A stretch of 64,000 bases of DNA from Escherichia phage vB_EcoM-172859UKE1: the sequence record MZ234025.1, one strand, 5' to 3'. Both the position numbers and the translations under genes were made by a program. Below, piece after piece: positions 2,763 through 61,281 of this stretch; within the stretch, counting starts at the first letter, position 1, and every line of letters begins with the position of its first letter. Below the pieces are notes generated by a model, which saw only the letters and a program-made list of their open reading frames with translations, had not been told where the DNA came from and made no database searches.

Positions 2763-4277
2763 TTATAAATTAATTGTTTTCATTACATAGTTAAATTTCT
2801 CATCAGCGTAACGTTGGATACGATCAATACCGTGTTTTAACAAGTAATTAAGATGAGTATACTTCTTTTTAGTATTTAATGATTTAGGTTTTACACCTGC
2901 GTCATCTATGAGATCCCAAACTGTAGCAACAGCTTTAGAACCGTGCTTACGAAGCACACGACCTACGGTTTGAAGTACGATAATTTTTGATTTAACACCA
3001 TGGGCAAAAATAACATGATGAAGATTCTTGACTGAAATACCAGTAGAGAATACTCCATATGATGCGACAATAATAATGCCTTTACCATTTTCTGCCATGA
3101 CTTTAAGCGCGTTACGTGTTTCAGTATCAACTTCACCTGATACGTAATAAACTTTTTCGTATCCAAGCTCTTTAATAGCTTCAAATATTTCTTTACCGTG
3201 TGTAACGTGTTTAAACATTACAAAGGCGTTCTCGTCTTTCTTAGCCAATTTGACCGAAAGTTGAGCAATCCACTTTGTACGACGTTTTAGTCCGGTAATA
3301 ATTTTAACTTCTTCTTGGTATGTTTTACCTTTTAATTTAATGGCGAATTCGTCCGGATAACGAAGGAAAATACTATTAATCTTAAGCTCAGTTACCTGTC
3401 CGTCTTCCATTAATTTAGACGTGCTAACAGGACGGAAGATTTCGCCGAACATGCCTACGTACTGCATTACATTGGCTTTTCCGTCTCTTAATGAGCCAGA
3501 TAAACCGAATTTAAACATGCAATTATTTAATCCTGAGATGATTGAAGAAATACTTTTGCCTGTTGCTAAGTGGCATTCATCGTTCATCATCATACCGAAC
3601 TGAGAGAACCATTCTTTAGGCTGCTTAACTACCGTTTGCCATGTGCCAACAATAATTGGAGCGTCGTTTTTAGATTTGTCCGCTTTATCAGCACCACCGC
3701 CAATTTTCTTAATCATCGAATGACTAAACAAGCGATAATCAACAAAATCATTAGCCATCTGGGTTGTCAATGCTGTTGTAGGGACGATAATGAGAATTTT
3801 ACCTTCATAGTTCTCTAGATAATACCGAGCTAAAAGTGCTTGGATTAGTGATTTACCTGCTGATGTCGGAAGGTTTAAAATTCGACGACGATTAACTAGC
3901 CCTTCATATACTGCATCTTTTTGATACCAATGTGGTTCGATTTTGGCGTTGCCTGAATAAATTTCTTGTTTAGAAAGCCATGCGTCAAAATCTTCCCTGG
4001 TAAGGTCTTCAGTCTCAAAGATTTTAGGGTCAATCCATACAGAATAACTCATATTGTTACAGAACTTTTTTATTTGTCCTACAAGTCCATATGGTAACAA
4101 ACGATTGTAATCTAAAAGTCGAATTCTACCGTCCCATTGCCCATAGCGATATTTTGGGTTAAATTTATACCCGTCAGCTTCAAAGCTAAAAAAGTCACGA
4201 AGTTCGTAAAACGTACTTTCGTCGCATTCAATGCGCACGTGACTAAAATCATGAAAATGTACTTTAATGTCAGTCAT
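2763..4277 (-). CDS. uvsW: UvsW DNA/RNA helicase (SF2)
   Basis: 504 aa; Walker A PTSAGKS, DECH box; length and position match T4 UvsW. Confidence 0.9.
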   Translation of the reverse strand: MTDIKVHFHDFSHVRIECDESTFYELRDFFSFEADGYKFNPKYRYGQWDGRIRLLDYNRLLPYGLVGQIKKFCNNMSYSVWIDPKIFETEDLTREDFDAWLSKQEIYSGNAKIEPHWYQKDAVYEGLVNRRRILNLPTSAGKSLIQALLARYYLENYEGKILIIVPTTALTTQMANDFVDYRLFSHSMIKKIGGGADKADKSKNDAPIIVGTWQTVVKQPKEWFSQFGMMMNDECHLATGKSISSIISGLNNCMFKFGLSGSLRDGKANVMQYVGMFGEIFRPVSTSKLMEDGQVTELKINSIFLRYPDEFAIKLKGKTYQEEVKIITGLKRRTKWIAQLSVKLAKKDENAFVMFKHVTHGKEIFEAIKELGYEKVYYVSGEVDTETRNALKVMAENGKGIIIVASYGVFSTGISVKNLHHVIFAHGVKSKIIVLQTVGRVLRKHGSKAVATVWDLIDDAGVKPKSLNTKKKYTHLNYLLKHGIDRIQRYADEKFNYVMKTINL

Positions 4278-4306
4278 GTCAAATTACCATGTAATAAATA
4301 TAGTTA

Positions 4307-4314
4307 TATTTATA
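4307..4314 (-). promoter_or_regulatory. T4-type late promoter box TATAAATA (for uvsW)
   Basis: Exact TATAAATA on minus strand about 30 nt upstream of uvsW ATG. Confidence 0.55.
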
Positions 4315-4327
4315 ATGAGGAAATATC

Positions 4328-4996
4328 ATGATCGATAAAGACTATATTGAAGAGTTACGTGCTCTTTCTGATAAAAAGGAAGCCAAAGCTAAACTGTTTG
4401 AATATGCGGAACAATTTGGCATTAGTGTTAAGAAAACAAAATCATTCGATAATATTGTTATTGATATCGAAGAAGCTCTTAACGCACTGGCTGATGAACC
4501 ATTACCTGAAACTGATGGATTATCTATCACTGATTTAATTACTGCCGCAGACGATGTGGACGGTGTTAATTTCACCAACGAAGAAGTTAAAGAAGAAGCT
4601 ATTCTGTTGTTTGATTCTCCAACAGAACAAGTTGAAGTATTAGAAGTTGTCGAACAAGAAAAAGAATTCGACCATGATAAATTCGAAGAAGCAATTACTC
4701 AGGTTGTTGAATCTGAAAAAGAGCCTGAGTCAGAGGTAAATAAAGAAGTAAAATTTGTTCTGCCTGAAAATTTTAGTCCTACGCTCATTAAATTAGGCAA
4801 AGGCCTAGGATATGTTACTGTTCCTTGGTGGATTTATCAATGGATAGCCGAAACCCCAGATTGGAAATCTCGCCCAACTAGTTTTGTGCATGCTTCTGCT
4901 CACCAAACATTATTTAGCTTAATTTATTATATTAATCGCGATGGATCAGTTCTAATTCGTGAAACTCGTAATTCTTCTTTCGTAACATTAAAATAA
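4328..4996 (+). CDS. inh: Inh, inhibitor of prohead protease gp21
   Basis: 222 aa, acidic N-terminal half; size and position (between uvsW and hoc) match T4 Inh. Confidence 0.75.
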   Translation: MIDKDYIEELRALSDKKEAKAKLFEYAEQFGISVKKTKSFDNIVIDIEEALNALADEPLPETDGLSITDLITAADDVDGVNFTNEEVKEEAILLFDSPTEQVEVLEVVEQEKEFDHDKFEEAITQVVESEKEPESEVNKEVKFVLPENFSPTLIKLGKGLGYVTVPWWIYQWIAETPDWKSRPTSFVHASAHQTLFSLIYYINRDGSVLIRETRNSSFVTLK

Positions 4997-5005
4997 GGAT
5001 AACTT

Positions 5006-5785
5006 ATGGCTTTTACAGTTGATATAACTCCTAAAACACCTACTGGAGTTATAGATCAGACTCAGCAGTTTACTGCTACACCCAGTGGTCAAACTGGAGA
5101 TGGACCTATTACATATGCTTGGACTGTAGATGATGTTCCACAAGATGGAGCTGAAGCAACTTTTAGTTATGTACTAAAAGGACCTGCCGGTCAAAAGACT
5201 ATTAAAGTAGTTGCAACAAACCCAGTCCTAGACGCTGAAGCTGAAACAGCAGAAGCTACTACAACTATCACAGTTCAAAATAAGACACAAACGACCACCT
5301 TAGCTGTAACTCCTAATAGCCCTGACGCTGGAGTAATTGGAACAGCTATTGAATTTACTGCTACTTTAGCTTCGCAGCCATCGGGCGCAAACGCTACTTA
5401 TCAATGGTATGTAGATGATTCTCCTGTGGGCGAAGCAACTAACGCTACGTTCAATTACACTCCTGCCGAAAGCGGGGTAAAAAGAATTAAGTGTGTGGCT
5501 CAAGTAACTGCGACAGATTATGATGCACTAAGCGTTACTTCTAATGAAGTATCACTGACTGTTAATAAAAAGACACAGACAACTACTTTGGCAGTAACTC
5601 CCGATAGTCCTTCAGCTGGAGTAATTGGAACCCCAGTTCAATTTACTGCTGCCTTAGCTTCTCAACCAGTTGGAGCGTCTGCTACGTATCAGTGGTATGT
5701 AGATGATTCACAAGTTGGTGGAGAAACTAACTCTACATTTAGCTATACTCCAACTACAAGTGGAGTTAAAAAATTAAATGCGTAG
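5006..5785 (+). CDS. hoc: Hoc outer capsid protein, N-terminal part (Ig-like domains 1-3), ended by a frameshift
   Basis: Tandem Ig-like repeats (TQTTTLAVTP...YQWYVDD...); frame ends at TAG 5783-5785 after an A6 run; continues in another frame (see 5863..6423). Confidence 0.8.
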   Translation: MAFTVDITPKTPTGVIDQTQQFTATPSGQTGDGPITYAWTVDDVPQDGAEATFSYVLKGPAGQKTIKVVATNPVLDAEAETAEATTTITVQNKTQTTTLAVTPNSPDAGVIGTAIEFTATLASQPSGANATYQWYVDDSPVGEATNATFNYTPAESGVKRIKCVAQVTATDYDALSVTSNEVSLTVNKKTQTTTLAVTPDSPSAGVIGTPVQFTAALASQPVGASATYQWYVDDSQVGGETNSTFSYTPTTSGVKKLNA

Positions 5786-9819: not shown

Positions 9820-11388
9820 TTAGATGCCTTTTACATATACACGTCTAAAGTAAGCGTTCTTACCAAGGCTGTTCAGGATAGACGGCATACCGGACTGGAT
9901 GCGAGCACCTGGAGCCTGCAGGGAACTTTCAGCAAACGGGTTAACACCGATACCGTAACGAGTTTTAAAGCCCATTACCGGCTGGAAGTTCTTAGGATCG
10001 GAACCACGCAGTGGGGTAAGTGCAACGTAAGGAGCATAGTAAATACCTGCATCCATTTCGTTAGCGCCTTTGTAACCAACGGTGAAGTAATCCTGTTTAG
10101 CATACTGGTCGATGTATACGCGGTATTTACCGCCAAGTACACCGGCAAATACAGACTTAGTAGTGTCGGTATTAAAACCAGAAGCCAGACCCTGTGCAGC
10201 GTAAGAAATACCAGTATCAACTGAAGCCAGTACGTTAACTACGTTACGGGAAGCGATAATGAAGTTACCTTCACCACGACCGGTTTGACGAGCAATTTCA
10301 ACTGCTTCTTTATCAATCTGGAACAACAGAGCTTTAAAGCTTTCACCGGCCCAACGAGCACCACGGATATCAATCGGGTCCTGGAAGTCGAATACACCAG
10401 CTTTAGAACCAACGATATTAGTCATACCAGATTTACCAACCTGAGCGGAGTAGTTAATCCAGTCAACAACTTCACGGTTGATTTCCAGCATAATTTCAGT
10501 AGCAAGAATACCACTCAGTTCAGCATCAGCATCCATACCGTGTACTGCACGGAGGTCTTGTGCCAATTCGATGGAGTAAGCTGCTTTCAGCTGACGAGAT
10601 TTAGCTTCAATAACTTGTTTGTCGATACGGAAGCCCATTTCGTTCCACGGGTTGTCGGTAGAACCATTGAAGCCTTCCTGAAGTTCAGCGATAGAAGTAG
10701 CCATACCTTCAGCGATTTCTACCAGTACACCTGCTTCCATTTGTTTGATAATTTCTGCATCCAGCAATTCTGGGGTAGAAGCCTCAGCGCTAATGGTAAC
10801 AACTTTAGTGGCCTGAAGATAAGTAGAACCAGTTTCAGCGAAGAAGTGATAATAAATGTCGCCGGCTACAGTGGACATACCAGCGGTAACAGGAGCAAAT
10901 GCTTTTGCAGCACCCTGACCAGAGAACATCGCATCTGGAGCATACATCGGATGGAAAGCTTCTTTAGCGTCAGCAGCGATAGGGTCTTTACCATATACTG
11001 CACGGAGAGCAAATACCTGACCGGTAGGGCTGTTCATAGGCTGAACACCACAAATATCAAAAGCGATCAGATTAGGAATAGCACGACGAACCATACCCAT
11101 AACTGCCGGCCCAATTTGGGTTACTGCACCAGAGGTTTGACCTGCTGCGATGTTCTGAGCATTATAACCGTGGTCACCACCAATTTCAGCTTCGGTCAAG
11201 AAAGAACCAAATGCCTGAGCGATTTTCTCGTCTTTATATTCAGGGGATACTTCGAAATCTTTTTCCTGGTTTTCGAAGATTTTAGCGATAATAGCCTGCT
11301 TGCTATTAGCGATTTCCGGCAGGCCTTCACCTTCCAGCAGTTCTTTCCATTTGTCTACGAGCTGAGCTTTAGTTTTGATAGTAGTCAT
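9820..11388 (-). CDS. 23: Major capsid protein gp23
   Basis: 522 aa; matches recalled T4 gp23 over most of its length (MTTIKTKAQL...NAYFRRVYVKGI). Confidence 0.97.
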   Translation of the reverse strand: MTTIKTKAQLVDKWKELLEGEGLPEIANSKQAIIAKIFENQEKDFEVSPEYKDEKIAQAFGSFLTEAEIGGDHGYNAQNIAAGQTSGAVTQIGPAVMGMVRRAIPNLIAFDICGVQPMNSPTGQVFALRAVYGKDPIAADAKEAFHPMYAPDAMFSGQGAAKAFAPVTAGMSTVAGDIYYHFFAETGSTYLQATKVVTISAEASTPELLDAEIIKQMEAGVLVEIAEGMATSIAELQEGFNGSTDNPWNEMGFRIDKQVIEAKSRQLKAAYSIELAQDLRAVHGMDADAELSGILATEIMLEINREVVDWINYSAQVGKSGMTNIVGSKAGVFDFQDPIDIRGARWAGESFKALLFQIDKEAVEIARQTGRGEGNFIIASRNVVNVLASVDTGISYAAQGLASGFNTDTTKSVFAGVLGGKYRVYIDQYAKQDYFTVGYKGANEMDAGIYYAPYVALTPLRGSDPKNFQPVMGFKTRYGIGVNPFAESSLQAPGARIQSGMPSILNSLGKNAYFRRVYVKGI

Positions 11389-42251: not shown

Positions 42252-42281
42252 GTTTACACGCTGATAGGACTATGTTATAGT
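42252..42281 (+). promoter_or_regulatory. Early promoter within palindromic cassette
   Basis: GTTTAC at 42252-42257, 18-nt spacer, TGtTATAGT; lies in the 28-bp palindrome GATAGGACTAtgttatagTAGTCCTATC. Confidence 0.6.
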
Positions 42282-42290
42282 AGTCCTATC
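42263..42290 (+). repeat. 28-bp palindromic promoter element (copy 1 of 4)
   Basis: Identical to 49071..49098 and 61235..61262; one mismatch at 50635..50662; truncated copy at 45981..46000. Confidence 0.85.
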
Positions 42291-46316: not shown

Positions 46317-46910
46317 ATGAACACACTGAAGAAACTTGTTGAATTCATCCGCACTAAACTTGGTACTGCTATGGCTAAAAATCTGACTGTCGAAGAACAG
46401 TATAACGCAGCTGCAGATAAGTTGATTACCCAAATCAAAGAACTAAAAACGGCTTCTGTTAAATCTATTAATGAAGAAAAACGTATTCGCGAACTTGTTA
46501 ATGAAAAGAACAAACAAGCCGCTTCTAAGGAACGTGAAATTCGTAAGCTCTTGGCTGAAGGACAAGATGTTACCATGCATGCTAAGCTTGGTCTTCTGTA
46601 TCGTCGAACTGCCGAACAACTTAATACAAAAGCTGACGGGTATGCCGCTATGCGAATTGAAATTGCTCGTAAGGTGGTTGAACTTGATGATGCTCGTCAG
46701 AATCTGGCAATCAAACTCGAATACATTCGTGAAACTCGAGCAGCCAACGCCCTTGGTATCTCTACGGCTGATGATGTAATTGAAATCGCTGCACTGACTA
46801 AGGTTGATATCGAAGACACTCTGACTCGTGTTGAAACGTTCAATGGCACTCCAGCCGGCGTCGAAACCACTTCTGCTGATGTACAAGAATATATTAACTC
46901 TTTGAAATAA
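46317..46910 (+). CDS. Coiled-coil protein, possibly PspA/IM30-like (197 aa)
   Basis: ATG 46317 (the ORF-track TTG start at 46302 is unlikely); long heptad-rich helices; PspA resemblance is by eye only. Confidence 0.5.
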
Positions 46911-46918
46911 AATAATAC

Positions 46919-46940
46919 GGAGGACTCCGGTCCTCCTTTT
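46919..46940 (+). terminator. Rho-independent terminator
   Basis: GGAGGAC-tccg-GTCCTCC hairpin followed by TTTT. Confidence 0.7.
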
Positions 46941-46959: not shown

Positions 46960-47562
46960 ATGCGAAACCAAAATAATGATATTGACTCAATGTTCGAAGA
47001 GTTCCGAGATAAGGTAAATCCACCTACGTCTTTAGTTGATTCATTACGATATGTTGCAACCGGACGTAAATGGTACTGGTCGTCTTCTTATGAGACTACT
47101 GAGAAAACGGCTAGCCATAGCAGAAAATCTTTATTAGCCCCAGGTATTATGATTCATGATATCGGAGCTATTGCTAAACTAGTTGCAGACCATGATATTA
47201 GATTCACTGATTTCGTTGCTCCTACATGGTCTGTTTGTTGTTTAAACACTGAATTGGAATATATCAGCGAACGCTCTGAAGATTATTATGGTTTTAGAGA
47301 TAAGCTTCTGAGGTCTAATATGTTTTATATCGATACAGAAGTTCTAGTCGATAATAAAAAATATTACTTTACGTTAATCATCGATTCTGAAACTATGTAT
47401 GAAGGCAAGCCTTTGCTTAAAAGAGTTGATGCTTTAAGTGCTATTGATGCGCTTTATGAAACTATGGTTGTTAGTCCTAATTTCACTAACAATTTAATCC
47501 TTGAGCAATTTATTATGGAATGTAGAGAATATGTCAAAGCCAACCCTGTACATGCCAATTAA
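46960..47562 (+). CDS. Hypothetical protein (200 aa)
   Basis: ATG 46960 after AAAGGAG SD. Confidence 0.55.
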   Translation: MRNQNNDIDSMFEEFRDKVNPPTSLVDSLRYVATGRKWYWSSSYETTEKTASHSRKSLLAPGIMIHDIGAIAKLVADHDIRFTDFVAPTWSVCCLNTELEYISERSEDYYGFRDKLLRSNMFYIDTEVLVDNKKYYFTLIIDSETMYEGKPLLKRVDALSAIDALYETMVVSPNFTNNLILEQFIMECREYVKANPVHAN

Positions 47563-47926
47563 GCCCTGGGCGTATGAATACAAGCGTAAATTAATCCCAA
47601 ACGAAGTACTATTTGGCCCTATTTTAGCTTTAGCATTTTTAATCTTTATGATTGTAGGAGCTGTTTTAGATTCTAGTGAAGTTATATCGTCTGATGCAGT
47701 GTTTTTACTTATTATAGCCGGGTCGTTTATTGTGCCATTTTTATTAATGCCTATTAACTGGGTGGGATATTGGTACCAAGGCCGTCATCACAGAGCTCGA
47801 GTTCGTGAATGGAAAGTTCAGTGCGCAAAAGCCAAAGCTCAGTATGATGAAGCTGTTAAAAAGTATGAATATGAAGAAGCTATGGAATTCGTTAAGGAAA
47901 TAAGATGCAAAAGCCTCAACTCTTAA
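47531..47926 (+). CDS. Membrane protein (two TM helices, basic C-terminal helix); start uncertain (47531 or 47552)
   Basis: Hydrophobic segments LFGPILALAFLIFMIVGAVL and AVFLLIIAGSFIVPFLLMPI; overlaps upstream ORF. Confidence 0.5.
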   Translation: MSKPTLYMPIKPWAYEYKRKLIPNEVLFGPILALAFLIFMIVGAVLDSSEVISSDAVFLLIIAGSFIVPFLLMPINWVGYWYQGRHHRARVREWKVQCAKAKAQYDEAVKKYEYEEAMEFVKEIRCKSLNS

Positions 47927-48264
47927 CCGTATGGCCTTCTCTTGGTGAGAACATTCTAATTTTTATTATGAGTATTGGCATGGGATTTGCCTTTGGATTA
48001 GTTGGATTTCTTATTGACGGCGTTGTGTTAGGATTTATAGGGAACACTGGTGGATTCACAGACCAATGGCAGGACTTACGATATACTCAAGCCTTTGCAT
48101 CAATCGCATCCTTTTGTACAGTAGTCTATTTTTACTACGATTTTATAAACCATAACAAGAAAAATAAAAAGGTTTACGCTTCTCAAATGATTAGTTATAA
48201 TGAACTCCTAGCTAGACGTGAAAATGAAACAATCGAAAACTTTATTAAGGAATGTAGAAAATGA
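47905..48264 (+). CDS. Membrane protein, member of the C-terminal ENFIKECR family
   Basis: 119 aa; TM segment plus C-terminal ...ETIENFIKECRK, shared with ORFs at 50680 and 51673. Confidence 0.55.
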   Translation: MQKPQLLTVWPSLGENILIFIMSIGMGFAFGLVGFLIDGVVLGFIGNTGGFTDQWQDLRYTQAFASIASFCTVVYFYYDFINHNKKNKKVYASQMISYNELLARRENETIENFIKECRK

Positions 48265-48566
48265 GTAAGATTATTGAAATTAAAGTACCAGAGTTTAATG
48301 ATGCCAAATCCGCTTCAGATGCAATTTATAAACTTCTGAATCAAGCTGAACGTATCGAAGAAGAAGCAACAAAGATCGCAGACCAATATGCCGTATCATT
48401 TTCTGTAGGTGATTATGGTAGCGGTCGTACTTATTATCCTAAGGGTGAAATCGTATCCCAGTGGATGAAAGATGAAATTGAAAATAATGGTGGCGATGTT
48501 AAGCGTGAAGGTAATGGTTACGTTATTACTGAAGGTGCTTGGGTTTCGTCTTCTGCGTTGTGCTAA
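48261..48566 (+). CDS. Hypothetical protein, paralog family member 1 (C-terminal GWVSSS..C)
   Basis: 101 aa ending GAWVSSSALC. Confidence 0.55.
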   Translation: MSKIIEIKVPEFNDAKSASDAIYKLLNQAERIEEEATKIADQYAVSFSVGDYGSGRTYYPKGEIVSQWMKDEIENNGGDVKREGNGYVITEGAWVSSSALC

Positions 48567-48575
48567 GGAATCATT

Positions 48576-48848
48576 ATGTCTAAAGAACAAACCGAACTGG
48601 CTGAAGCTGTAGCAAAAATCTATGCAGCTATTGAGGCTGCCAAAGAAATTGCTGATAAACAAAACACAACATTCGACTTGTATCCAGCTTATGGTATGGG
48701 TGGAACCTATCATTCACCCGGACATCTTAAAGCCGATCTTGAACGTTGTACAAAAAACGGTTATGCTGAATGGGCTGATGTTTATCAATACGACTACAAC
48801 CTGAGCCTTGAAGATGGTGGTTGGGTTGCATCTTCACACACTTGCTAA
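48576..48848 (+). CDS. Hypothetical protein, paralog family member 2
   Basis: 90 aa ending GGWVASSHTC; SD AAGGAA. Confidence 0.55.
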   Translation: MSKEQTELAEAVAKIYAAIEAAKEIADKQNTTFDLYPAYGMGGTYHSPGHLKADLERCTKNGYAEWADVYQYDYNLSLEDGGWVASSHTC

Positions 48849-48857
48849 GGAAACCAT

Positions 48858-49055
48858 ATGTCTCGTGAATTAGATTGTGCTGTACGTACCGCGGTAGCTG
48901 CTCTAGAAAACCTGTTCCAAATTGCAACAGAAGAACGCGAAGAAGTTACATTATGGATTGAAGATAACGCAGGTCTGAATCTCCAGGACGCGATCTCATT
49001 ATCTAATAATAGCATTACTGTTCAAGGCTGGGTATCGTCTAGTTATTCTTGCTAA
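48858..49055 (+). CDS. Hypothetical protein, paralog family member 3
   Basis: 65 aa ending QGWVSSSYSC; SD AAGGAAA. Confidence 0.55.
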   Translation: MSRELDCAVRTAVAALENLFQIATEEREEVTLWIEDNAGLNLQDAISLSNNSITVQGWVSSSYSC

Positions 49056-49059
49056 AACA

Positions 49060-49089
49060 GTTTACAATAAGATAGGACTATGTTATAGT
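49060..49089 (+). promoter_or_regulatory. Early promoter within palindromic cassette
   Basis: GTTTAC at 49060-49065, TGtTATAGT -10; exact 28-bp palindrome copy at 49071-49098. Confidence 0.6.
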
Positions 49090-49117
49090 AGTCCTATCAA
49101 ATTAAATGGAGTCCGCA

Positions 49118-49357
49118 ATGATTTATTACGAAAGTATCGGAACCAAAGTGATTGGTAAAACCATTACTCGTGAAAAGTTTGCAAAGATATTCGATATGCG
49201 TTATAAAAAATCTGAACACAAAGGCATCCGATTCGAAGATGCGCACTGTACAATTTGCCCTTATAATGAAGACATAAATGGTACAATCGTTCCATTGGTA
49301 GAGGCTTCACATGATGACCTCTGGGATGAATATAATATCGCATGTCGTGAAATTTAA
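49118..49357 (+). CDS. Hypothetical protein (79 aa)
   Basis: ATG 49118 after GGAG; the ATG at 49106 lies within the conserved AAATGGAG cassette. Confidence 0.5.
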   Translation: MIYYESIGTKVIGKTITREKFAKIFDMRYKKSEHKGIRFEDAHCTICPYNEDINGTIVPLVEASHDDLWDEYNIACREI

Positions 49358-49385
49358 GTTAATGAATTAATCCGAGGAAAATATT

Positions 49386-50342
49386 ATGATGTTAGTTATT
49401 GGTTCTCGTGCACTTCACTATCATGGTCTTATTGATTCTAGCGCTATCAAAAATAGTGATTGGGACTTTATTGCGGACCAAGGTTCTTGGAATGCATTCA
49501 AAAATCAAATGATGGGTGTATATGTTCACCAAGATAACCCTGATGTCCAAGTTTTCAAATGCTTCCATAATGGACGCGAAACTCATTTTGAAGCATATAT
49601 TGTTCCGGCGATCACTAATGTCCGTGAATTAGTCGGTGAACTCACTCCTGAAGATTTCACGTCTTCTTATGACCTTTTAAAATACGCCAAGAAAAATTTG
49701 ACTAAAGACCGTTTGACCGGGTTTTACTGGGCAACTCCTGAGATATGTCTTGCAATTAAAATGTCTCATCGTTTCAAGAAAAATAATCCATTCTTTTTAA
49801 AGACTATGAACCATATTCAGTATCTTCGCGGTAAAGGTGTTACACTGAACGATGAACTTACTGAAATTATGCTGAAACGCCAGAAAGAAACTTTGAACTA
49901 TGCTCACCCGGTTCTTGACACTTCTAAAAGTGCGTTCTTTAAAGATGACATCTATACATATGACCATGATACTATTCATGAAGCCATTGCACTAACTGAC
50001 CAGCCTGCTTATAAGTTTTATATGAAAGAAGGCTCAGAAGTTATGACATCACGCGAGAAGTTCGAATCATTACCAGAAATGGTTAAATTAGCCGGTGTAT
50101 ATGAAGAAGCTTGTGTATTAGCTCTTGAACGTTCACAGATTCCTAACGACTTTAAAATCCATCCGAGTGATAGTTTTATGATGGCCCTTGAAAAGGTCTG
50201 TACATCAATCACATCAGGATGGTTCCGTGAGTTCGCTTGGGAAAATTATAGCAAAGTAGTAAGTATGTACCAAAGCTTAGGACATGACGATTACGTCAAG
50301 CGTTTCAAACAAAACTTTCATATGGTAAAACCTTTCAAATAA
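49386..50342 (+). CDS. Hypothetical protein (318 aa) with a weak nucleotidyltransferase-like GS...DxD N-terminal motif
   Basis: IGSRALHYHGL...NSDWDF near N-terminus; longest ORF of the accessory region. Confidence 0.6.
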   Translation: MMLVIGSRALHYHGLIDSSAIKNSDWDFIADQGSWNAFKNQMMGVYVHQDNPDVQVFKCFHNGRETHFEAYIVPAITNVRELVGELTPEDFTSSYDLLKYAKKNLTKDRLTGFYWATPEICLAIKMSHRFKKNNPFFLKTMNHIQYLRGKGVTLNDELTEIMLKRQKETLNYAHPVLDTSKSAFFKDDIYTYDHDTIHEAIALTDQPAYKFYMKEGSEVMTSREKFESLPEMVKLAGVYEEACVLALERSQIPNDFKIHPSDSFMMALEKVCTSITSGWFREFAWENYSKVVSMYQSLGHDDYVKRFKQNFHMVKPFK

Positions 50343-50354
50343 TTTCACAAAACA

Positions 50355-50384
50355 GTTTACAAGGTCTGTAGTTGTTGATACTAT
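50355..50384 (+). promoter_or_regulatory. Early promoter with inverted repeat
   Basis: GTTTAC at 50355-50360, 18-nt spacer, TACTAT at 50379-50384; arms AGGTCTGTAG/CTATAGACCT. Confidence 0.6.
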
Positions 50385-50422
50385 AGACCTATCAAAACAA
50401 ATGAGTGAATGGAGATATAAAA

Positions 50423-50623
50423 ATGACTACTTTGAATAAACGTTTCGGTAAAGCTAAACCTGGTTGTGCAGCAGAACGTCGTTATGTTTTCGCTCAGTTA
50501 GAAGATGTAGAGTATCAGATTAATCAAGTTCACATTACTGGTATCGAGCCTATGTGTGGCCTTGAAGCTCTTCGTGAAGTTCGTGATGGGTATCGTCGTG
50601 ACATCGAAGAAATGTCAAAATAA
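50423..50623 (+). CDS. Hypothetical small protein (66 aa)
   Basis: ATG 50423 after GGAG within the conserved RBS cassette. Confidence 0.5.
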   Translation: MTTLNKRFGKAKPGCAAERRYVFAQLEDVEYQINQVHITGIEPMCGLEALREVRDGYRRDIEEMSK

Positions 50624-50624
50624 G

Positions 50625-50653
50625 TGTACAAACTGATAGGGCTATGTTATAGT
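50625..50653 (+). promoter_or_regulatory. Early promoter within palindromic cassette
   Basis: GTGTAC -35, TATAGT -10; 28-bp palindrome with one mismatch at 50635-50662. Confidence 0.55.
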
Positions 50654-50679
50654 AGTCCTATCAACTTGAGGAGAATATT

Positions 50680-50985
50680 ATGAAATTAACAGAAACCAAC
50701 CGAATCGGTCTTTTTACAATATTTGCATCGCTTTTTTACGCAGCTCTTTCTGTTGCAGTATTACAAAAGGCTTACGATATGGATGGTGTTCCTGGTTGTA
50801 TATTTTTATCACCGTTTTTATTATTCGTCGGAGCTTTGATATTATATGCCACGTCCGGTTTAGACCATAATGTCTGGGTCAATTATAAACGTAAATTGTC
50901 CGAAGAAGAACACGCAGAAGCTCGTAAAAAAGCTATTGAATCTACCAATCTAGAAAATTTCATTAAAGAATGTCGAGGAAAATAA
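50680..50985 (+). CDS. Membrane protein, ENFIKECR family
   Basis: 101 aa; two hydrophobic segments; C-terminus ...STNLENFIKECRGK. Confidence 0.55.
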   Translation: MKLTETNRIGLFTIFASLFYAALSVAVLQKAYDMDGVPGCIFLSPFLLFVGALILYATSGLDHNVWVNYKRKLSEEEHAEARKKAIESTNLENFIKECRGK

Positions 50986-50986
50986 T

Positions 50987-51673
50987 ATGAATAGTTCTAA
51001 AGTGTTTAATAGTCAAGCTCGTGCAGTAGGTGGTTTTGCCGGCGGTATTTCTAATGATAAAATCAAGAACGAGCCTATGTTCTTCAACTGTAGTTTAGAA
51101 TTTGCTTATAATAACGGCGGTCCTATTACTCGCTCTTTCATTATGAACTTGCCGGATGATTGGAACACCGACCAGGTTGTATTTGATTCACGAGTCCACA
51201 TGCTGATGCCTGGTTGGTATCCTGCAATCCCAGGCTATCACCATGATGACGTACCACGCCCAGATATTCCAGTTGGTCAACACTTTATTACTGCAGGACA
51301 ACCTGACTATGACAACCCTCGTTACCATTCTGAACATATTCTTGGTCTTGTTAACGCTGATGTGTGTCCTACTCATTTTGCAACAGGAACTGCGGAGTTC
51401 AGTCAGATTCCTTATGGCGAACTTATCTATCGCCAGTGGCACAAAGAAGTCCTCGAAAAAATTGAAAAAGGTGAACTAGAGAAATGGGAAGCTCCAGATC
51501 GTACTCTTCTTCAGTTTGATTGGCAAACATGGCACACTGGTTCTCGTGCAATTAGTAACGGATGGCGTTGGTTCGGACGTGTATCTCGTAATACAGACCG
51601 AGTTAAAAAGATTACCAATGAAATTCGTGTCAATGCTCAAGTTTATCTGGAATTCCCTATGGAAGGCTGGTAA
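50987..51673 (+). CDS. Hypothetical protein (228 aa)
   Basis: ORF after GGAAAA SD, Trp/His-rich. Confidence 0.55.
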   Translation: MNSSKVFNSQARAVGGFAGGISNDKIKNEPMFFNCSLEFAYNNGGPITRSFIMNLPDDWNTDQVVFDSRVHMLMPGWYPAIPGYHHDDVPRPDIPVGQHFITAGQPDYDNPRYHSEHILGLVNADVCPTHFATGTAEFSQIPYGELIYRQWHKEVLEKIEKGELEKWEAPDRTLLQFDWQTWHTGSRAISNGWRWFGRVSRNTDRVKKITNEIRVNAQVYLEFPMEGW

Positions 51674-52164
51674 TGATACATAAAATTCACTGGGCAAACA
51701 TGGACGATGACGACGAAGGTACTTCATATTATTCTATAGATTGGACAGGATGTCCATCCTACTTAGTGAAACGTCATTGTCAAGCATTTAAAATCGACCA
51801 GCCAGCAGGTATTATTGTGAACAGATACATTAACGGATATCAACCTATCGATGAAGTAATACGAACAACTCAAGCTGAGCTTGAAAAGTTTTTCAATAAG
51901 TGCCAATGGATAACAGGATGGATTATATTTGTACCGTCAGTGTGGTTTTTTAGTACTAAGGTGAGTTCTTTCGGTTTTGTTGATATTATTGCTATCTTAT
52001 TAGCATCTAGTATCATAAGTGTTGTTGGTGGCATCATTGGCGGCGGTACCGCCGCCATCATTATTAATCTTATTAAAAGTAGTTTACAAGAACATAAAGA
52101 CAAGATAAAAGCCAAGAATAATGAAGTTGAACGTTTTATTACCGAATGCAGGAATTTGAGATGA
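51673..52164 (+). CDS. Membrane protein, ENFIKECR family
   Basis: 163 aa; C-terminal TM region and ...NNEVERFITECRNLR. Confidence 0.55.
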   Translation: MIHKIHWANMDDDDEGTSYYSIDWTGCPSYLVKRHCQAFKIDQPAGIIVNRYINGYQPIDEVIRTTQAELEKFFNKCQWITGWIIFVPSVWFFSTKVSSFGFVDIIAILLASSIISVVGGIIGGGTAAIIINLIKSSLQEHKDKIKAKNNEVERFITECRNLR

Positions 52165-52397
52165 GTATAGCAATTTACATTAAATCAGAATCATGTGATA
52201 GTTATCTGTACACATATGATAAAGATGTGTCAGAAGAAAAAATCAAAGACGATCTTAATATGGACCTTGATTTGTTCCGTCCTATTGCAGATTACAAACT
52301 TGCGGTCTCTAATAGTGAAAGTCCATCTAAAGAAACGCGCATTGAAGAATTTATGTCAGAATTAATGGCCAAATCATGGGACCGAGATGATGAGTAA
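52161..52397 (+). CDS. Hypothetical acidic protein (78 aa)
   Basis: ATGA overlap with upstream stop. Confidence 0.45.
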   Translation: MSIAIYIKSESCDSYLYTYDKDVSEEKIKDDLNMDLDLFRPIADYKLAVSNSESPSKETRIEEFMSELMAKSWDRDDE

Positions 52398-52845
52398 GAA
52401 AAATAAAGTGAAAGAACTATCAGCCGGTATTATCTTCATGACAAAAGATAAAGAGTTATTCATGGGGCGTGTAACTGGTTCTCGTCCTAAAGGTGCATTA
52501 GCTCATCGGTGGGATATTCCTAAAGGCCGTGTCGAACCCGGCGAATCTCCTATTGAAGCCGCTATTCGTGAATGCGAAGAAGAAACTGGGTTTACACAAT
52601 ATGACCCTGCCTTCCTGAAAGACCTAGGTGAACATAATTACTCAGACAATAAGAATATTCATCTGTTCCTATATACCATCCCTGTAGAGCACGAGCAATT
52701 CAGAAACAGTGTTTGTAATTCTTATCATACATTCCCAGACGGACGACAGATTCCTGAATTTGATGCATTCGCTTTAATTAAACCTTCTCAATGGGAATAT
52801 GTAATGGGCAAATCATTATATAAGGTGCTCACTACCCTCCTATAA
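52387..52845 (+). CDS. nudE: Nudix hydrolase NudE
   Basis: 152 aa; Nudix box GRVEPGESPIEAAIRECEEETG; directly upstream of e as in T4. Confidence 0.85.
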   Translation: MMSKKNKVKELSAGIIFMTKDKELFMGRVTGSRPKGALAHRWDIPKGRVEPGESPIEAAIRECEEETGFTQYDPAFLKDLGEHNYSDNKNIHLFLYTIPVEHEQFRNSVCNSYHTFPDGRQIPEFDAFALIKPSQWEYVMGKSLYKVLTTLL

Positions 52846-52855
52846 GTAATAAATA

Positions 52856-52875
52856 CCTCCTATAAACGTGGGAGG
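52856..52875 (+). promoter_or_regulatory. RBS-sequestering hairpin with embedded late-promoter-like box upstream of e
   Basis: CCTCC...GGAGG inverted repeat enclosing TATAAACG; the right arm is the SD of e. Confidence 0.45.
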
Positions 52876-52879
52876 TATT

Positions 52880-53368
52880 ATGAATATATTTGAAATGCTT
52901 CGTAATGACGAAGGTCTTAGACTGACTTTATACAAAGACACTGAAGGCTTTTGGACGATTGGCATAGGCCATTTAGTAACAAAGAACCCGTCTTTAGCCG
53001 TAGCTAAAGCTGAACTTGACAGAATGATCGGTCGTAAATGCAACGGTACAATTACCCTTGATGAGGCTGAAAAGCTATTTAATGAAGACGTTGATAAAGC
53101 CGTTCGCGGAATCTTGGGTAATGCTAAACTTAAACCGGTATACGATTCTTTAGATGCGGTTCGTCGATGTGCATTGGTCAATATGGTCTTCCAAATGGGT
53201 GTAGCAGGCGTCGCCGGTTTTACTAATTCTCTTCGTATGCTTCAACAGAAACGTTGGGACGAAGCGGCAGTAAATCTAGCCCAATCTAAATGGTATCGTC
53301 AGACACCTAATCGCGCGAAACGCGTAATCTCAACATTTAAAACAGGAACTTGGAAAGCGTATATATGA
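52880..53368 (+). CDS. e: Lysozyme (endolysin) e
   Basis: 162 aa from ATG 52880; matches recalled T4 lysozyme ([20 protein letters not shown]...TGTW). Confidence 0.95.
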
Positions 53369-61224: not shown

Positions 61225-61253
61225 TTTACAACTTGATAGGACTATGTTATAGT
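61224..61253 (+). promoter_or_regulatory. Early promoter within palindromic cassette
   Basis: GTTTAC at 61224-61229, TGtTATAGT -10; exact 28-bp palindrome copy at 61235-61262. Confidence 0.6.
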
Positions 61254-61281
61254 AGTCCTATCAAAACGAACGGAGAACAAA

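Follow-up and report, generated by a model that had tools for sequence, protein, structure and literature searches.

PspB and PspC bring PspA to the inner membrane, and LiaI anchors LiaH in a comparable way. In ESCRT-III systems, MIM helices serve as short docking motifs that are bound by MIT domains. T4-type phages reportedly exchange genes in PeSL (promoter-early stem-loop) cassettes, which Arbiol and colleagues are said to have described in 2010. For the T4 proteins e.2 to e.5, neither the annotations nor the family names nor the literature searched name a function or a shared C-terminal tail; precomputed Pfam families among T4 e.5 to e.2 are PF26876 and PF26896.

The locus described here is part of a 64,000-nucleotide stretch of the Escherichia phage vB_EcoM-172859UKE1 (record MZ234025.1); this whole stretch is the window. 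It comes from a phage of the Mosigvirus type (a T4-like phage), and the region corresponds to T4 genes e.6 to e.1, with synteny to the T4 region at 65.5-74 kb. Five proteins, A to E, carry a C-terminal tail of the form hxxF[IV]xxCR, in four clean copies (A, C, D and E) and a degenerate fifth (B):

46317-46910, + strand: e.6 homologue of the PspA/IM30/Vipp1 family (ESCRT-III-like), outside the coordinates of the original prediction
46919-46936, + strand: GC-rich tetraloop hairpin with a U tract between e.6 and gene A (terminator scan)
46960-47562, + strand: protein A, T4 e.5 homologue, 200 amino acids, soluble; tail LEQFIMECR at 47500-47526
47531-47926, + strand: protein B, T4 e.4 homologue with two transmembrane segments; degenerate tail AMEFVKEIR at 47879-47905
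47905-48264, + strand: protein C, T4 e.3 homologue, membrane protein; tail IENFIKECR at 48232-48258
50635-50662, + strand: promoter/stem-loop element of 28 nt, 18 nt upstream of gene D (pattern search)
50680-50985, + strand: protein D, 101 amino acids, two transmembrane segments, Mosigvirus only; tail LENFIKECR at 50950-50976
51673-52164, + strand: protein E, T4 e.2-like N-terminal domain followed by a transmembrane region; tail VERFITECR at 52126-52152

The original prediction had singled out C, D and E; all three open reading frames are present on the + strand with the ends that it quoted (...ETIENFIKECRK, ...LENFIKECRGK and ...VERFITECRNLR). Its three tail copies are real, but the clean copy in A and the degenerate one in B had been missed. 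T4 e.5, e.4, e.3 and e.2 (PHROGs 2607, 2604, 2330 and 2203) are the orthologues of A, B, C and the N-terminal part of E, and these keep the T4 gene order between the tRNA region and nudE/e. D and E are 3.8-4.8 kb away from e.6, with unrelated genes intervening. The 28-nt element has four copies in the window (at 42263, 49071, 50635 and 61235; none expected, by pattern search), and the copy upstream of gene D overlaps a promoter-like site at 50625-50653.

The tail is highly specific to these genes. In a six-frame scan of the window, the pattern F[ILMV]xEC has only four matches, all on the + strand and all 1-11 residues before the stop codon of a real gene; thus, chance cannot explain the motif. 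With a tail HMM the four copies score 24-30 bits (next-best open reading frame of the window: 5.5 bits). In ~170 kb of Mosigvirus genome, an HMM from 21 tails of six genera identified no copies but these four, with scores of 16.8-20.7 bits, versus 8.6 bits for a junk open reading frame. The consensus across phages is [LIV]-[EKND]-x-[F/I]-[IV]-x-x-[C/A]-[R/K], its distance to the C-terminus varies between 1 and 23 residues across carriers, and the hydrophobic residues at -3, 0, +1 and +4 fall on one helical face. The mean hydrophobic moment of the tails is 0.51 in comparison to 0.34 for shuffled sequences, a modest excess, as 18% of the shuffles reach the observed mean.

Protein A is 47% identical to T4 e.5 (blastp, E 3e-66), belongs to phrog_2607 and has no hydrophobic segment by Kyte-Doolittle hydropathy. 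Its C-terminus (...LEQFIMECREYVKANPVHAN) continues for 11 residues after the tail, into the beginning of the following gene. The e.5 family has just four residues that are invariant across seven genera, N96, F184, C188 and R189, three of them in the tail, and the tail is all that protein A has in common with distant family members (BLASTP, 6-10% coverage). AlphaFold2 drew this tail as a helix, at low confidence and in a poor model (mean pLDDT 50). Protein B is 52% identical to T4 e.4 (blastp, 7e-55) and has two hydrophobic segments; in its C-terminus (...AMEFVKEIRCKSLNS) the Cys is replaced by Ile, with a Cys two residues later. This tail gave no score with the tail HMM; it fits the generalised motif, like the variants FIKNVRRK and FIKEVRRK. 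Protein C is 35% identical to T4 e.3 (E 8e-24) and a member of phrog_2330. Protein D was found by tblastn in 149 records, every one a Mosigvirus-type Escherichia or Shigella phage; it is outside all T4 orthologous groups and no counterpart was found in T4. It matches phrog_9798 and, weakly, phrog_2203 (E 5e-4), the family of protein E, over the part consisting of transmembrane region and tail. Protein E is a member of phrog_2203 with an N-terminus that matches T4 e.2 (E 6e-8), and Enterobacter phage Q7622 encodes a full-length homologue including the tail. The PHROG matches behind the orthology with T4 e.5 to e.2 range from 1e-50 to 1e-95.

Hydropathy plots confirmed the hydrophobic transmembrane segments expected for C, D and E. 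B and D have two such segments each; C and E have a long hydrophobic stretch and a second segment that is weaker or merged. Lys/Arg clusters come after the last transmembrane segment of the membrane carriers, and the topology is derived from hydropathy and charge only. The carriers had been described as a family of small membrane proteins, but protein A is soluble and this is thus not simply a membrane-protein family. Outside the window the tail is likewise found on proteins of 92-315 amino acids, some of them soluble, and overall on members of at least 11 unrelated PHROGs with no assigned function (2607, 13418, 22749, 2330, 9798, 2203, 10543, 10830, 30144, 22510 and 32323). The suggested duplication and divergence applies to a part of the carriers: D and E look like true paralogues from their sequence match, and two adjacent genes of phage Q7622 have the ending ...FVKGCRNGR in common, but A, B, C and D/E show no significant similarity to one another outside the tail. 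Pfam scans of A to E at E<=0.1 returned neither PspB nor PspC, nor any other significant match, and carriers from other genomes had no Pfam match either.

The block opens with e.6, a member of the PspA/IM30/Vipp1 (ESCRT-III) family. An e.6 homologue matches PspA 4WHE at 99.9% in a published HHpred search, and the family was already stated in a genome note (PMC7862958). Our own data agree: the AlphaFold2 model has a long helical hairpin (pLDDT >90 over residues 30-130), and the top 10 Foldseek hits in the PDB are all Vipp1 (E 4e-4 to 1.7e-2). Vipp1 also provides the top four hits when a profile of 10 e.6 orthologues is compared with PDB sequences (E 0.008-0.035), with a colinear alignment over residues 3-142. 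The e.6 protein of the window itself has no match to PF04012 at E<0.1; two distant relatives that match it by phmmer, P0090 (E 3e-7) and P0089 (E 1.8e-7), pass the gathering score of this Pfam family (39.0 and 35.1 versus 33.9 bits). The e.6 gene is conserved in more than 1,100 phage records. Its position directly upstream of the carriers is an informative piece of context that the original prediction had not noticed.

Nine further T4-type genera have the tail as well, in one to five copies per genome: Tequatrovirus, Dhakavirus, Moonvirus, Kanagawavirus, Marfavirus, Jiaodavirus, Tegunavirus, Tulanevirus and Pseudotevenvirus. In T4 itself, e.5 and e.3 have the same tail (EKFVKECRE and KEFVIDCRK). 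T4 e.2 is truncated before the tail: the tail coding sequence (...NLNNFITECRKLK) follows two stop codons in the same frame and is unannotated. At 15 of 18 loci, the motif is present on the gene that comes right after the e.6 homologue, despite differing flanks (tRNA/nudE-e block, nrd genes or DnaB/ligase), although the loci are not fully independent, as T4-type early regions are syntenic anyway. The e.6-like loci L030 and L032 are without a tail-bearing neighbour, and in L029 the immediate neighbour has no tail. A hairpin is found in the equivalent position at all 16 loci examined, with differing stem sequences. On distant metagenomic contigs, the tail is present on 11 of the 27 genes that lie up to four positions after the PspA-like gene, in comparison to 2 of 40 other genes (Fisher p 4e-4, for a pattern drawn up post hoc, after the data had been seen). 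All nine tails of this distant clade combine I at position 0 with A at +4, a combination that is found in none of the tails from T4-type phages and locus L031: there, position 0 is F, W or Y, and 31 of 35 tails have Cys at +4. Such a concerted change from F/C to I/A is what a shared, co-evolving partner would produce, and it shows that the Cys acts as a packing residue rather than as a chemical group.

The tail is conserved at the protein level by selection. In eight Mosigvirus genomes, the tails of four genes have no amino-acid change and the fifth has one I to V exchange, while the remainder of each carrier protein is variable; the tails are on real, translated, selected proteins. The codons of 23 tails carry most of their information in the first two positions and little in the third, with TTT (18) and TTC (5) used for Phe, TGT (12) and TGC (10) for Cys, and AGA/AGG (14) and CGA/CGT (9) for Arg. 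As synonymous sites vary, the conservation is not that of a DNA repeat, and a repeated DNA element unrelated to expression, named with the original prediction as the finding that would overturn it, does not account for the tails. A variant of this idea is that the sequence serves the downstream gene by ribosome binding or translational coupling, or serves cassette recombination, with the peptide being incidental. In the window and in T4, the distance from each tail to the start codon that follows is indeed 8-16 nt (at most other loci 7-16 nt, at some up to 66 nt), the Arg codon and the codon after it often spell AGGA or GAGG at Shine-Dalgarno distance, and within Mosigvirus the synonymous variety is somewhat lower in tails (5 per 45 codons, versus about 0.2 per codon elsewhere in the genes). 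However, any C-terminus in this tightly packed region adjoins the following start, the distance spans 7 to 66 nt, the CGT variants have no Shine-Dalgarno-like sequence at all, and the longest exact DNA match between the window copies is about 8 nt, too short for recombination. Together with the free mixing of synonymous codons and the use of both Arg codon families, this has already largely refuted a nucleotide-level role, which now has hardly any probability left. The tail could instead control stability and set how long early proteins last, either as a C-terminal degron or as a protective cap recognised by a host protease, and a short, transferable C-terminal motif on unrelated early proteins would suit this. 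We regard it as improbable: a terminal degron would not typically be placed anywhere from 1 to 23 residues before the C-terminus, the motif is confined to one gene block rather than spread over the early genes of the genome, and its tie to the PspA-like gene would be left unexplained.

Superinfection exclusion or modulation of host membranes by paralogous small membrane proteins, as originally suggested, is similarly improbable. It is true that four of the five window carriers are small proteins with two transmembrane segments by hydropathy, that D and E resemble paralogues, and that the carriers are early genes, in a type of phage with known small membrane exclusion proteins. However, nothing in our data supports exclusion: A and other carriers are soluble, A, B, C and D/E lack significant similarity outside the tail, the genes for Imm and Sp are at a different locus in phages of this type, and a blastp comparison of A to E with proteins of phage SSE1 (Imm, Sp, an Imm-like protein, Ac, RI and holin T) gave a best E of only 0.2. 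A more serious alternative is a docking or oligomerisation helix with a partner other than e.6: the carriers could bind each other through their tails and form a hetero-oligomeric membrane complex, or there could be a single host protein to which all of them bind (PspA/PspF of the host, a protease or a chaperone, for example). The amphipathic helix, the presence of several carriers per genome with unrelated N-terminal parts and the clade-wise alternation of F/C and I/A would be as expected. All main tails of the three E. coli-phage genera have an acidic residue directly before the Cys, in 10 cases Glu and in one Asp, apart from an additional tail of JS98, which has Tyr there, and the degenerate copies of the e.4 type. 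Phages that infect other hosts vary at this residue, and a host partner could explain the difference. However, the three genera are close relatives and the Glu pattern may simply be inherited, and a different partner would leave the tie of the motif to a PspA-like gene across changing flanks unexplained; on balance, we consider this alternative rather unlikely, though far from negligible.

Protein-level selection and the near-constant adjacency to a PspA/Vipp1-type gene argue that the tail is probably a docking handle and not the mark of an exclusion family. As to the partner, our tentative preference is that the carriers bind the phage PspA homologue e.6 by their common tail: we consider this a fair possibility, suggested by gene neighbourhood only; the helicity of the tail, the binding and the physiological role are inferred. 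Early proteins of the e.6-e.2 block that are otherwise unrelated would end in a common short amphipathic helix and would bind e.6, the product of the first gene of the block, by means of it. The membrane carriers B, C, D and E would be small N-in/C-in inner-membrane proteins with a cytoplasmic tail, a location suggested by the positive-inside rule only, and may anchor the polymer-forming e.6 protein at the cytoplasmic face of the inner membrane, with the soluble carriers being regulators or clients of e.6. The likely purpose would be to keep inner membrane and proton-motive force intact during infection. More tentatively still, T4-type phages may carry a viral Psp-like membrane-maintenance module, consisting of the e.6 polymer and changeable adaptors, membrane-bound and soluble, that are connected via a portable 9-residue C-terminal helix; new adaptors would arise whenever the tail is put on a new protein.

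If this module exists, it would give a single function to T4 e.2 to e.6, which have had none assigned since the genome was sequenced. A model phage would then possess its own membrane-repair or remodelling system with a simple, mutable recognition code. This would be relevant to the question of how an energised host membrane is maintained while a phage infects the cell or inhibits its lysis, and the ESCRT-III/PspA field would gain a small viral system in which the partner motif is defined and short enough for direct testing by point mutants and peptides.

Of the described systems, Imm and Sp of T4 resemble the carriers in being small early proteins of this phage type, located in membrane or periplasm, but show no sequence similarity to them, map to another locus and have no shared tail. 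The resemblance to PeSL cassettes concerns gene D, which is restricted to Mosigvirus, lacks a T4 counterpart and is positioned directly behind a repeated promoter/stem-loop element; this fits an acquisition by cassette shuffling. The PeSL-like element is distinct from the tail, which is itself no DNA repeat. With the MIM/MIT pairs, the phage tail would share the principle of a short amphipathic helix near the C-terminus as portable handle in an ESCRT-III-superfamily setting; however, the MIM is on the ESCRT-III protein itself while the phage tail is on the putative partners, and the sequences are unrelated. The Psp and Lia systems are comparable: there too, a PspA-family gene is directly upstream of small inner-membrane proteins, C-terminal helices of predicted cytoplasmic location are the putative recruiting elements, and a hairpin separates the gene of the abundant polymer from the adaptor genes. 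Unlike Psp and Lia, the putative module is viral and has several interchangeable carriers per genome, some soluble and all with one short motif for putative e.6 binding. The carriers are outside the PspB and PspC sequence families, but, by analogy, may work like adaptors of the PspB/PspC type.

The stretch comes from a Mosigvirus, a T4-like phage (Straboviridae, Tevenvirinae), and the 6 kb around the genes that share the C-terminal motif hxxF[IV]xxCR (the tail, with the Phe as position 0) share 98.3% identity with Shigella phage SSE1 and 95-96% with many other Mosigvirus genomes. All genes of this region are on the + strand and closely packed. Gene order was assigned by comparison with T4, and tail carriers are named A to E:

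46317-46910, + strand, homologue of T4 e.6
46960-47562, + strand, A, homologue of T4 e.5
47531-47926, + strand, B, homologue of T4 e.4
47905-48264, + strand, C, homologue of T4 e.3
48261-49055, + strand, three small paralogues ending in W-x-S-S-S-x-x-C
49386-50342, + strand, DUF7277/DUF7275 protein, preceded by further small genes
50680-50985, + strand, D
50987-51673, + strand, widely conserved 228-aa protein
51673-52164, + strand, E, with an N-terminus homologous to T4 e.2
between E and nudE, + strand, small acidic protein
52387-52845, + strand, nudE
52868-53368, + strand, lysozyme e

The original prediction was of three small membrane proteins (C, D and E) with a common C-terminal motif. The three open reading frames and the endings quoted for them match the sequence exactly, and all three have the hydrophobic segments claimed; the list of copies was incomplete, however, as a fourth clean copy is present in A (...LEQFIMECREYVKANPVHAN), which has no hydrophobic segment, and a degenerate copy in B (...AMEFVKEIRCKSLNS). 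A six-frame scan of the 64 kb for F[ILMV]xEC gave four matches, all on the + strand and near stop codons of real genes. The same four copies score 24-30 bits with a tail HMM (everything else 5.5 bits or less), and they are the only ones found in the window and the rest of the SSE1 genome by a second HMM, made from 21 tails of six genera (16.8-20.7 bits, next 8.6). The motif occurs far more often than expected by chance. Outside the tails there is no significant similarity among A to E, with the exception of a weak match (E 5e-4) between the TM-plus-tail part of D and the PHROG of E. The small soluble protein encoded at 49106-49357 (+) ends in ...EYNIACREI, loosely similar to the tail (aromatic at -4, Cys-Arg); it receives no score from the tail HMM, and its Q7622 orthologue ends in ...THNTYCYEI.

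The tails could be similar because of a repeated DNA element unrelated to expression, the alternative named with the original prediction. In a codon table of 23 tails from six genera, synonymous codons are mixed (Phe: TTT 18, TTC 5; Cys: TGT 12, TGC 10; Arg: AGA/AGG 14 versus CGA/CGT 9) and the information lies mainly at codon positions 1 and 2, with little at position 3, indicating selection on the peptide rather than a DNA repeat. Among eight Mosigvirus genomes, no amino-acid change is seen in the tails of A, B, C and E and one (I to V) in that of D, while the non-tail parts of A, B, D and E vary by 0.15-0.3 extra residues per codon. The tail lies upstream of the next start codon, by 8-16 nt in the window and in T4 and by 7-16 nt in the majority of other loci, with some reaching 66 nt; the Arg codon and its successor frequently form AGGA or GAGG at Shine-Dalgarno distance. 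This sequence looks like a secondary dual use, because there are CGT variants without it, the distance varies widely and all C-termini in this block abut the next start. The tail is also not a DNA element of the promoter-early stem-loop (PeSL) type. The record of Escherichia phage vB_EcoM-ZQ3 (MW630116) has interrupted open reading frames for A, C and E alike and a shortened nudE annotation, caused either by sequencing errors or by loss of accessory genes.

Equivalent regions were compared in T4, JS98, Moon, Q7622, Marfa, Mineola, fHe-Yen9-01, AS-gz and GAP161. Each genome has between one and five tails, in every case C-terminal and in the coding direction of this block. Among the carriers are orthologues of A, C and E as well as lineage-specific proteins: soluble proteins of 92-105 aa (Q7622 3109-3387, Marfa 4116-4424, Moon 5280-5567 and Mineola 9886-10194), extra small membrane proteins, and proteins of 288-315 aa in AS-gz and GAP161; D occurs in Mosigvirus only. 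The carriers belong to at least 11 PHROGs, every one of unknown function, and none has a Pfam match. Aligned across seven genera, the e.5 family has only four invariant residues, N96, F184, C188 and R189, three of them within the tail, and in BLASTP A has the tail alone in common with distant family members; the tail is thus the most constrained part of the carriers. In these sequence comparisons it behaves as a portable module and not as the remnant of whole-protein common descent. A search of 5.8 billion proteins with the tail alignment returned fragments of the same families only; A as single query returned three close relatives, and a related-locus search with A two near-identical loci.

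T4 e.2 itself is a truncated E-type gene. In the interval between e.2 and nudE (1976-2461 of the T4 locus from NC_000866, - strand), the e.2 frame has, past the e.2 stop codon, a second in-frame stop and then continues to ...MPWRLRRQQKIFDEKKYAQNLNNFITECRKLK*, overlapping the nudE start, and the interval also has a TM-like stretch in another frame. This intact tail may be part of an unannotated small ORF or a recent remnant. In the record of Escherichia phage Av-05 (NC_025830; classed Vequintavirinae, 121 kb), D, the 228-aa gene, E, nudE and e form a block with Mosigvirus-level identity that adjoins genes not of T4 type; the record may be a chimeric assembly.

The e.6 homologue, conserved in 1,109 phage records, is followed directly by the first tail-bearing gene at all T4-type loci. 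Several lines of evidence place e.6 in the PspA/IM30/Vipp1 family (ESCRT-III superfamily). The AF2 model from the single e.6 sequence is a long helical hairpin (pLDDT >90); Vipp1 accounts for all ten of its best Foldseek matches in the PDB, with CHMP1B and PspA next. Among PDB sequences, the top four matches to a profile made from ten orthologues are also Vipp1 (E 0.008-0.035), colinear from residue 3. An exhaustive phmmer search with e.6 found 37 relatives only, and two distant ones, P0090 and P0089, match Pfam PF04012 (PspA_IM30) with 39.0 and 35.1 bits (gathering score 33.9), two more below threshold. Single-sequence searches of PDB sequences with A, the 228-aa neighbour and e.6 gave no match. 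An hhalign comparison of E. coli PspA with the e.6 alignment also gave none, a result that we disregard. The PspA nature of e.6 is already known from one genome announcement, that of Klebsiella phage Metamorpho, with an HHpred match of 99.9% to PspA 4WHE (PMC7862958), and is little used in annotation: the protein is 'hypothetical' in most records and a 'host specificity protein' in some.

On the 3' side of the stop codon of the PspA-like gene is a GC-rich hairpin with a tetraloop (46919-46936, +), often C(UUCG)G. It is present in 16 of 16 loci (the window, L002 (T4), L005-L007, L009, L014-L017 and the distant contigs L022, L024, L025, L027, L029 and L031), with stems that differ in sequence and keep the structure, several with a U tract. 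It may act as terminator, attenuator or mRNA stabiliser and set the ratio between e.6 and the downstream genes, which would fit a polymer expressed above its adaptors.

The metagenomic contigs that encode the distant PspA-like proteins have flanks unlike T4, with a DnaB-type helicase upstream and a DNA ligase downstream. At six of eight such loci the genes just 3' of the PspA-like gene encode small TM or soluble proteins with the tail pattern, differing from T4-type tails by two concerted substitutions:

Tails encoded 3' of PspA-like genes on distant metagenomic contigs
L022: IESILARAR, IDSIIKHARSR
L024: VESILANARER, VKAIVHRARLE, IKTIIARAKS
L025: GMIINNARKS
L027: EHIIEQARNR, ADEIVTKARGR
L029: QKIVEQAREE
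L031: KEYIHECRTK, EEFIDYCKNK

The pattern [FILVMWY][ILV]xx[CA][RK] within the last 26 residues is carried by 11 of 27 genes up to four positions downstream versus 2 of 40 others (Fisher p 4e-4, indicative only, as the pattern was written after seeing the data). Within the catalogue of 44 tails, Ile at position 0 is accompanied by Ala at +4 in 9/9; the tails from T4-type loci and L031 never have the Ile/Ala combination: their position 0 is F, W or Y, and +4 is Cys in 31/35. The state of positions 0 and +4 is uniform among all paralogues of one genome: tails of one genome change together, as a common partner would produce.

As the Cys position also accepts Ala, Val, Ile, Met and Ser, the Cys does not act as a chemical group, which excludes a metal, disulfide or modification site; it is probably a small packing residue on a hydrophobic helix face formed by -3, 0, +1 and +4. 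The polar face of the tail is acidic, which excludes a cationic membrane-targeting helix. A gp21 prohead protease site of the (I/L)xE type at FIKE|C is out because the Glu is not conserved beyond E. coli phages, and a nascent-peptide effect at termination because the tail ends between 1 and 23 residues before the stop. Nothing points to superinfection exclusion, the function originally suggested, and A to E are not similar in sequence to Imm, Sp, Ac, RI or holin T.

In each of B, C, D and E, a short N-terminus is followed by a hydropathy-predicted TM hairpin, then by a Lys/Arg cluster behind the last TM segment and a charged stretch of 25-55 residues before the tail, which is predicted to be cytoplasmic by the positive-inside rule. 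From the motif, the selection on it, its distribution and its adjacency to the e.6 homologue, and with function read from comparison only, we infer a tentative mechanism: the tail would dock both the membrane carriers (B to E) and soluble ones, A among them, onto the PspA homologue of the phage, and the small membrane carriers would be anchors that bring the e.6 polymer to the inner membrane. The main rival, which we consider somewhat less likely, is that the tail helix binds another common partner, either the carriers themselves or a host protein; the uniform tails of each genome would fit a common partner in both cases, and the rival does not explain the position of the tail genes next to PspA-like genes in T4-type and distant loci. 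AF2 modelling of A with a 23-sequence alignment gave a poor model (mean pLDDT 50).

The block has further elements. The window has four copies, versus 0 expected, of a 28-nt palindrome, GATAGGRCTATGTTATAGTAGTCCTATC (42263-42290, 49071-49098, 50635-50662 and 61235-61262, all +). In a scan of the copies at 49071 and 50635, both overlap a promoter-like site; the former is just upstream of the gene at 49106 and the latter 18 nt upstream of D. The 28-nt element is similar to the PeSLs that have been described as cassette boundaries of T4-type phages, and its place before D suggests how this Mosigvirus-only gene was acquired. The tandem paralogues at 48261-48566, 48576-48848 and 48858-49055 (+), described in the preceding finding of the original prediction, end in W-[VI]-S-S-S-x-x-C at the extreme C-terminus, a second C-terminal Cys motif of the same block; Q7622, fHe-Yen9-01, JS98 and Marfa have 3-5 members each. 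The 228-aa protein is present in 472 phage records, in T4-type phages of many hosts and, with identity down to about 30%, in phages of Mycobacterium, Gordonia and Bacillus, and has neither a Pfam nor a PDB sequence match. The DUF7277 (E 9e-28) and DUF7275 (E 1e-78) protein of 318 aa has the same position in most T4-type genera examined.

The orthology with T4 e.2-e.5 is, like the membership of e.6 in the PspA family, already known or trivially derivable. Literature searches for e.3, e.5 and e.6 by gene name returned irrelevant papers only, and we found no prior description of the common tail, its spread over unrelated carriers, the selection at protein level or the coupling to a PspA homologue. 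Small membrane proteins that anchor a polymer are established in bacteria, where PspB/PspC act with PspA and LiaI with LiaH. None of the carriers belongs to the PspB/PspC family by sequence and their resemblance is a functional analogy only; what the phage block has in common with these systems is a PspA-type protein combined with small putative membrane adaptors, and it may represent a Psp/Lia-like module in a virus, with a new portable adaptor motif.
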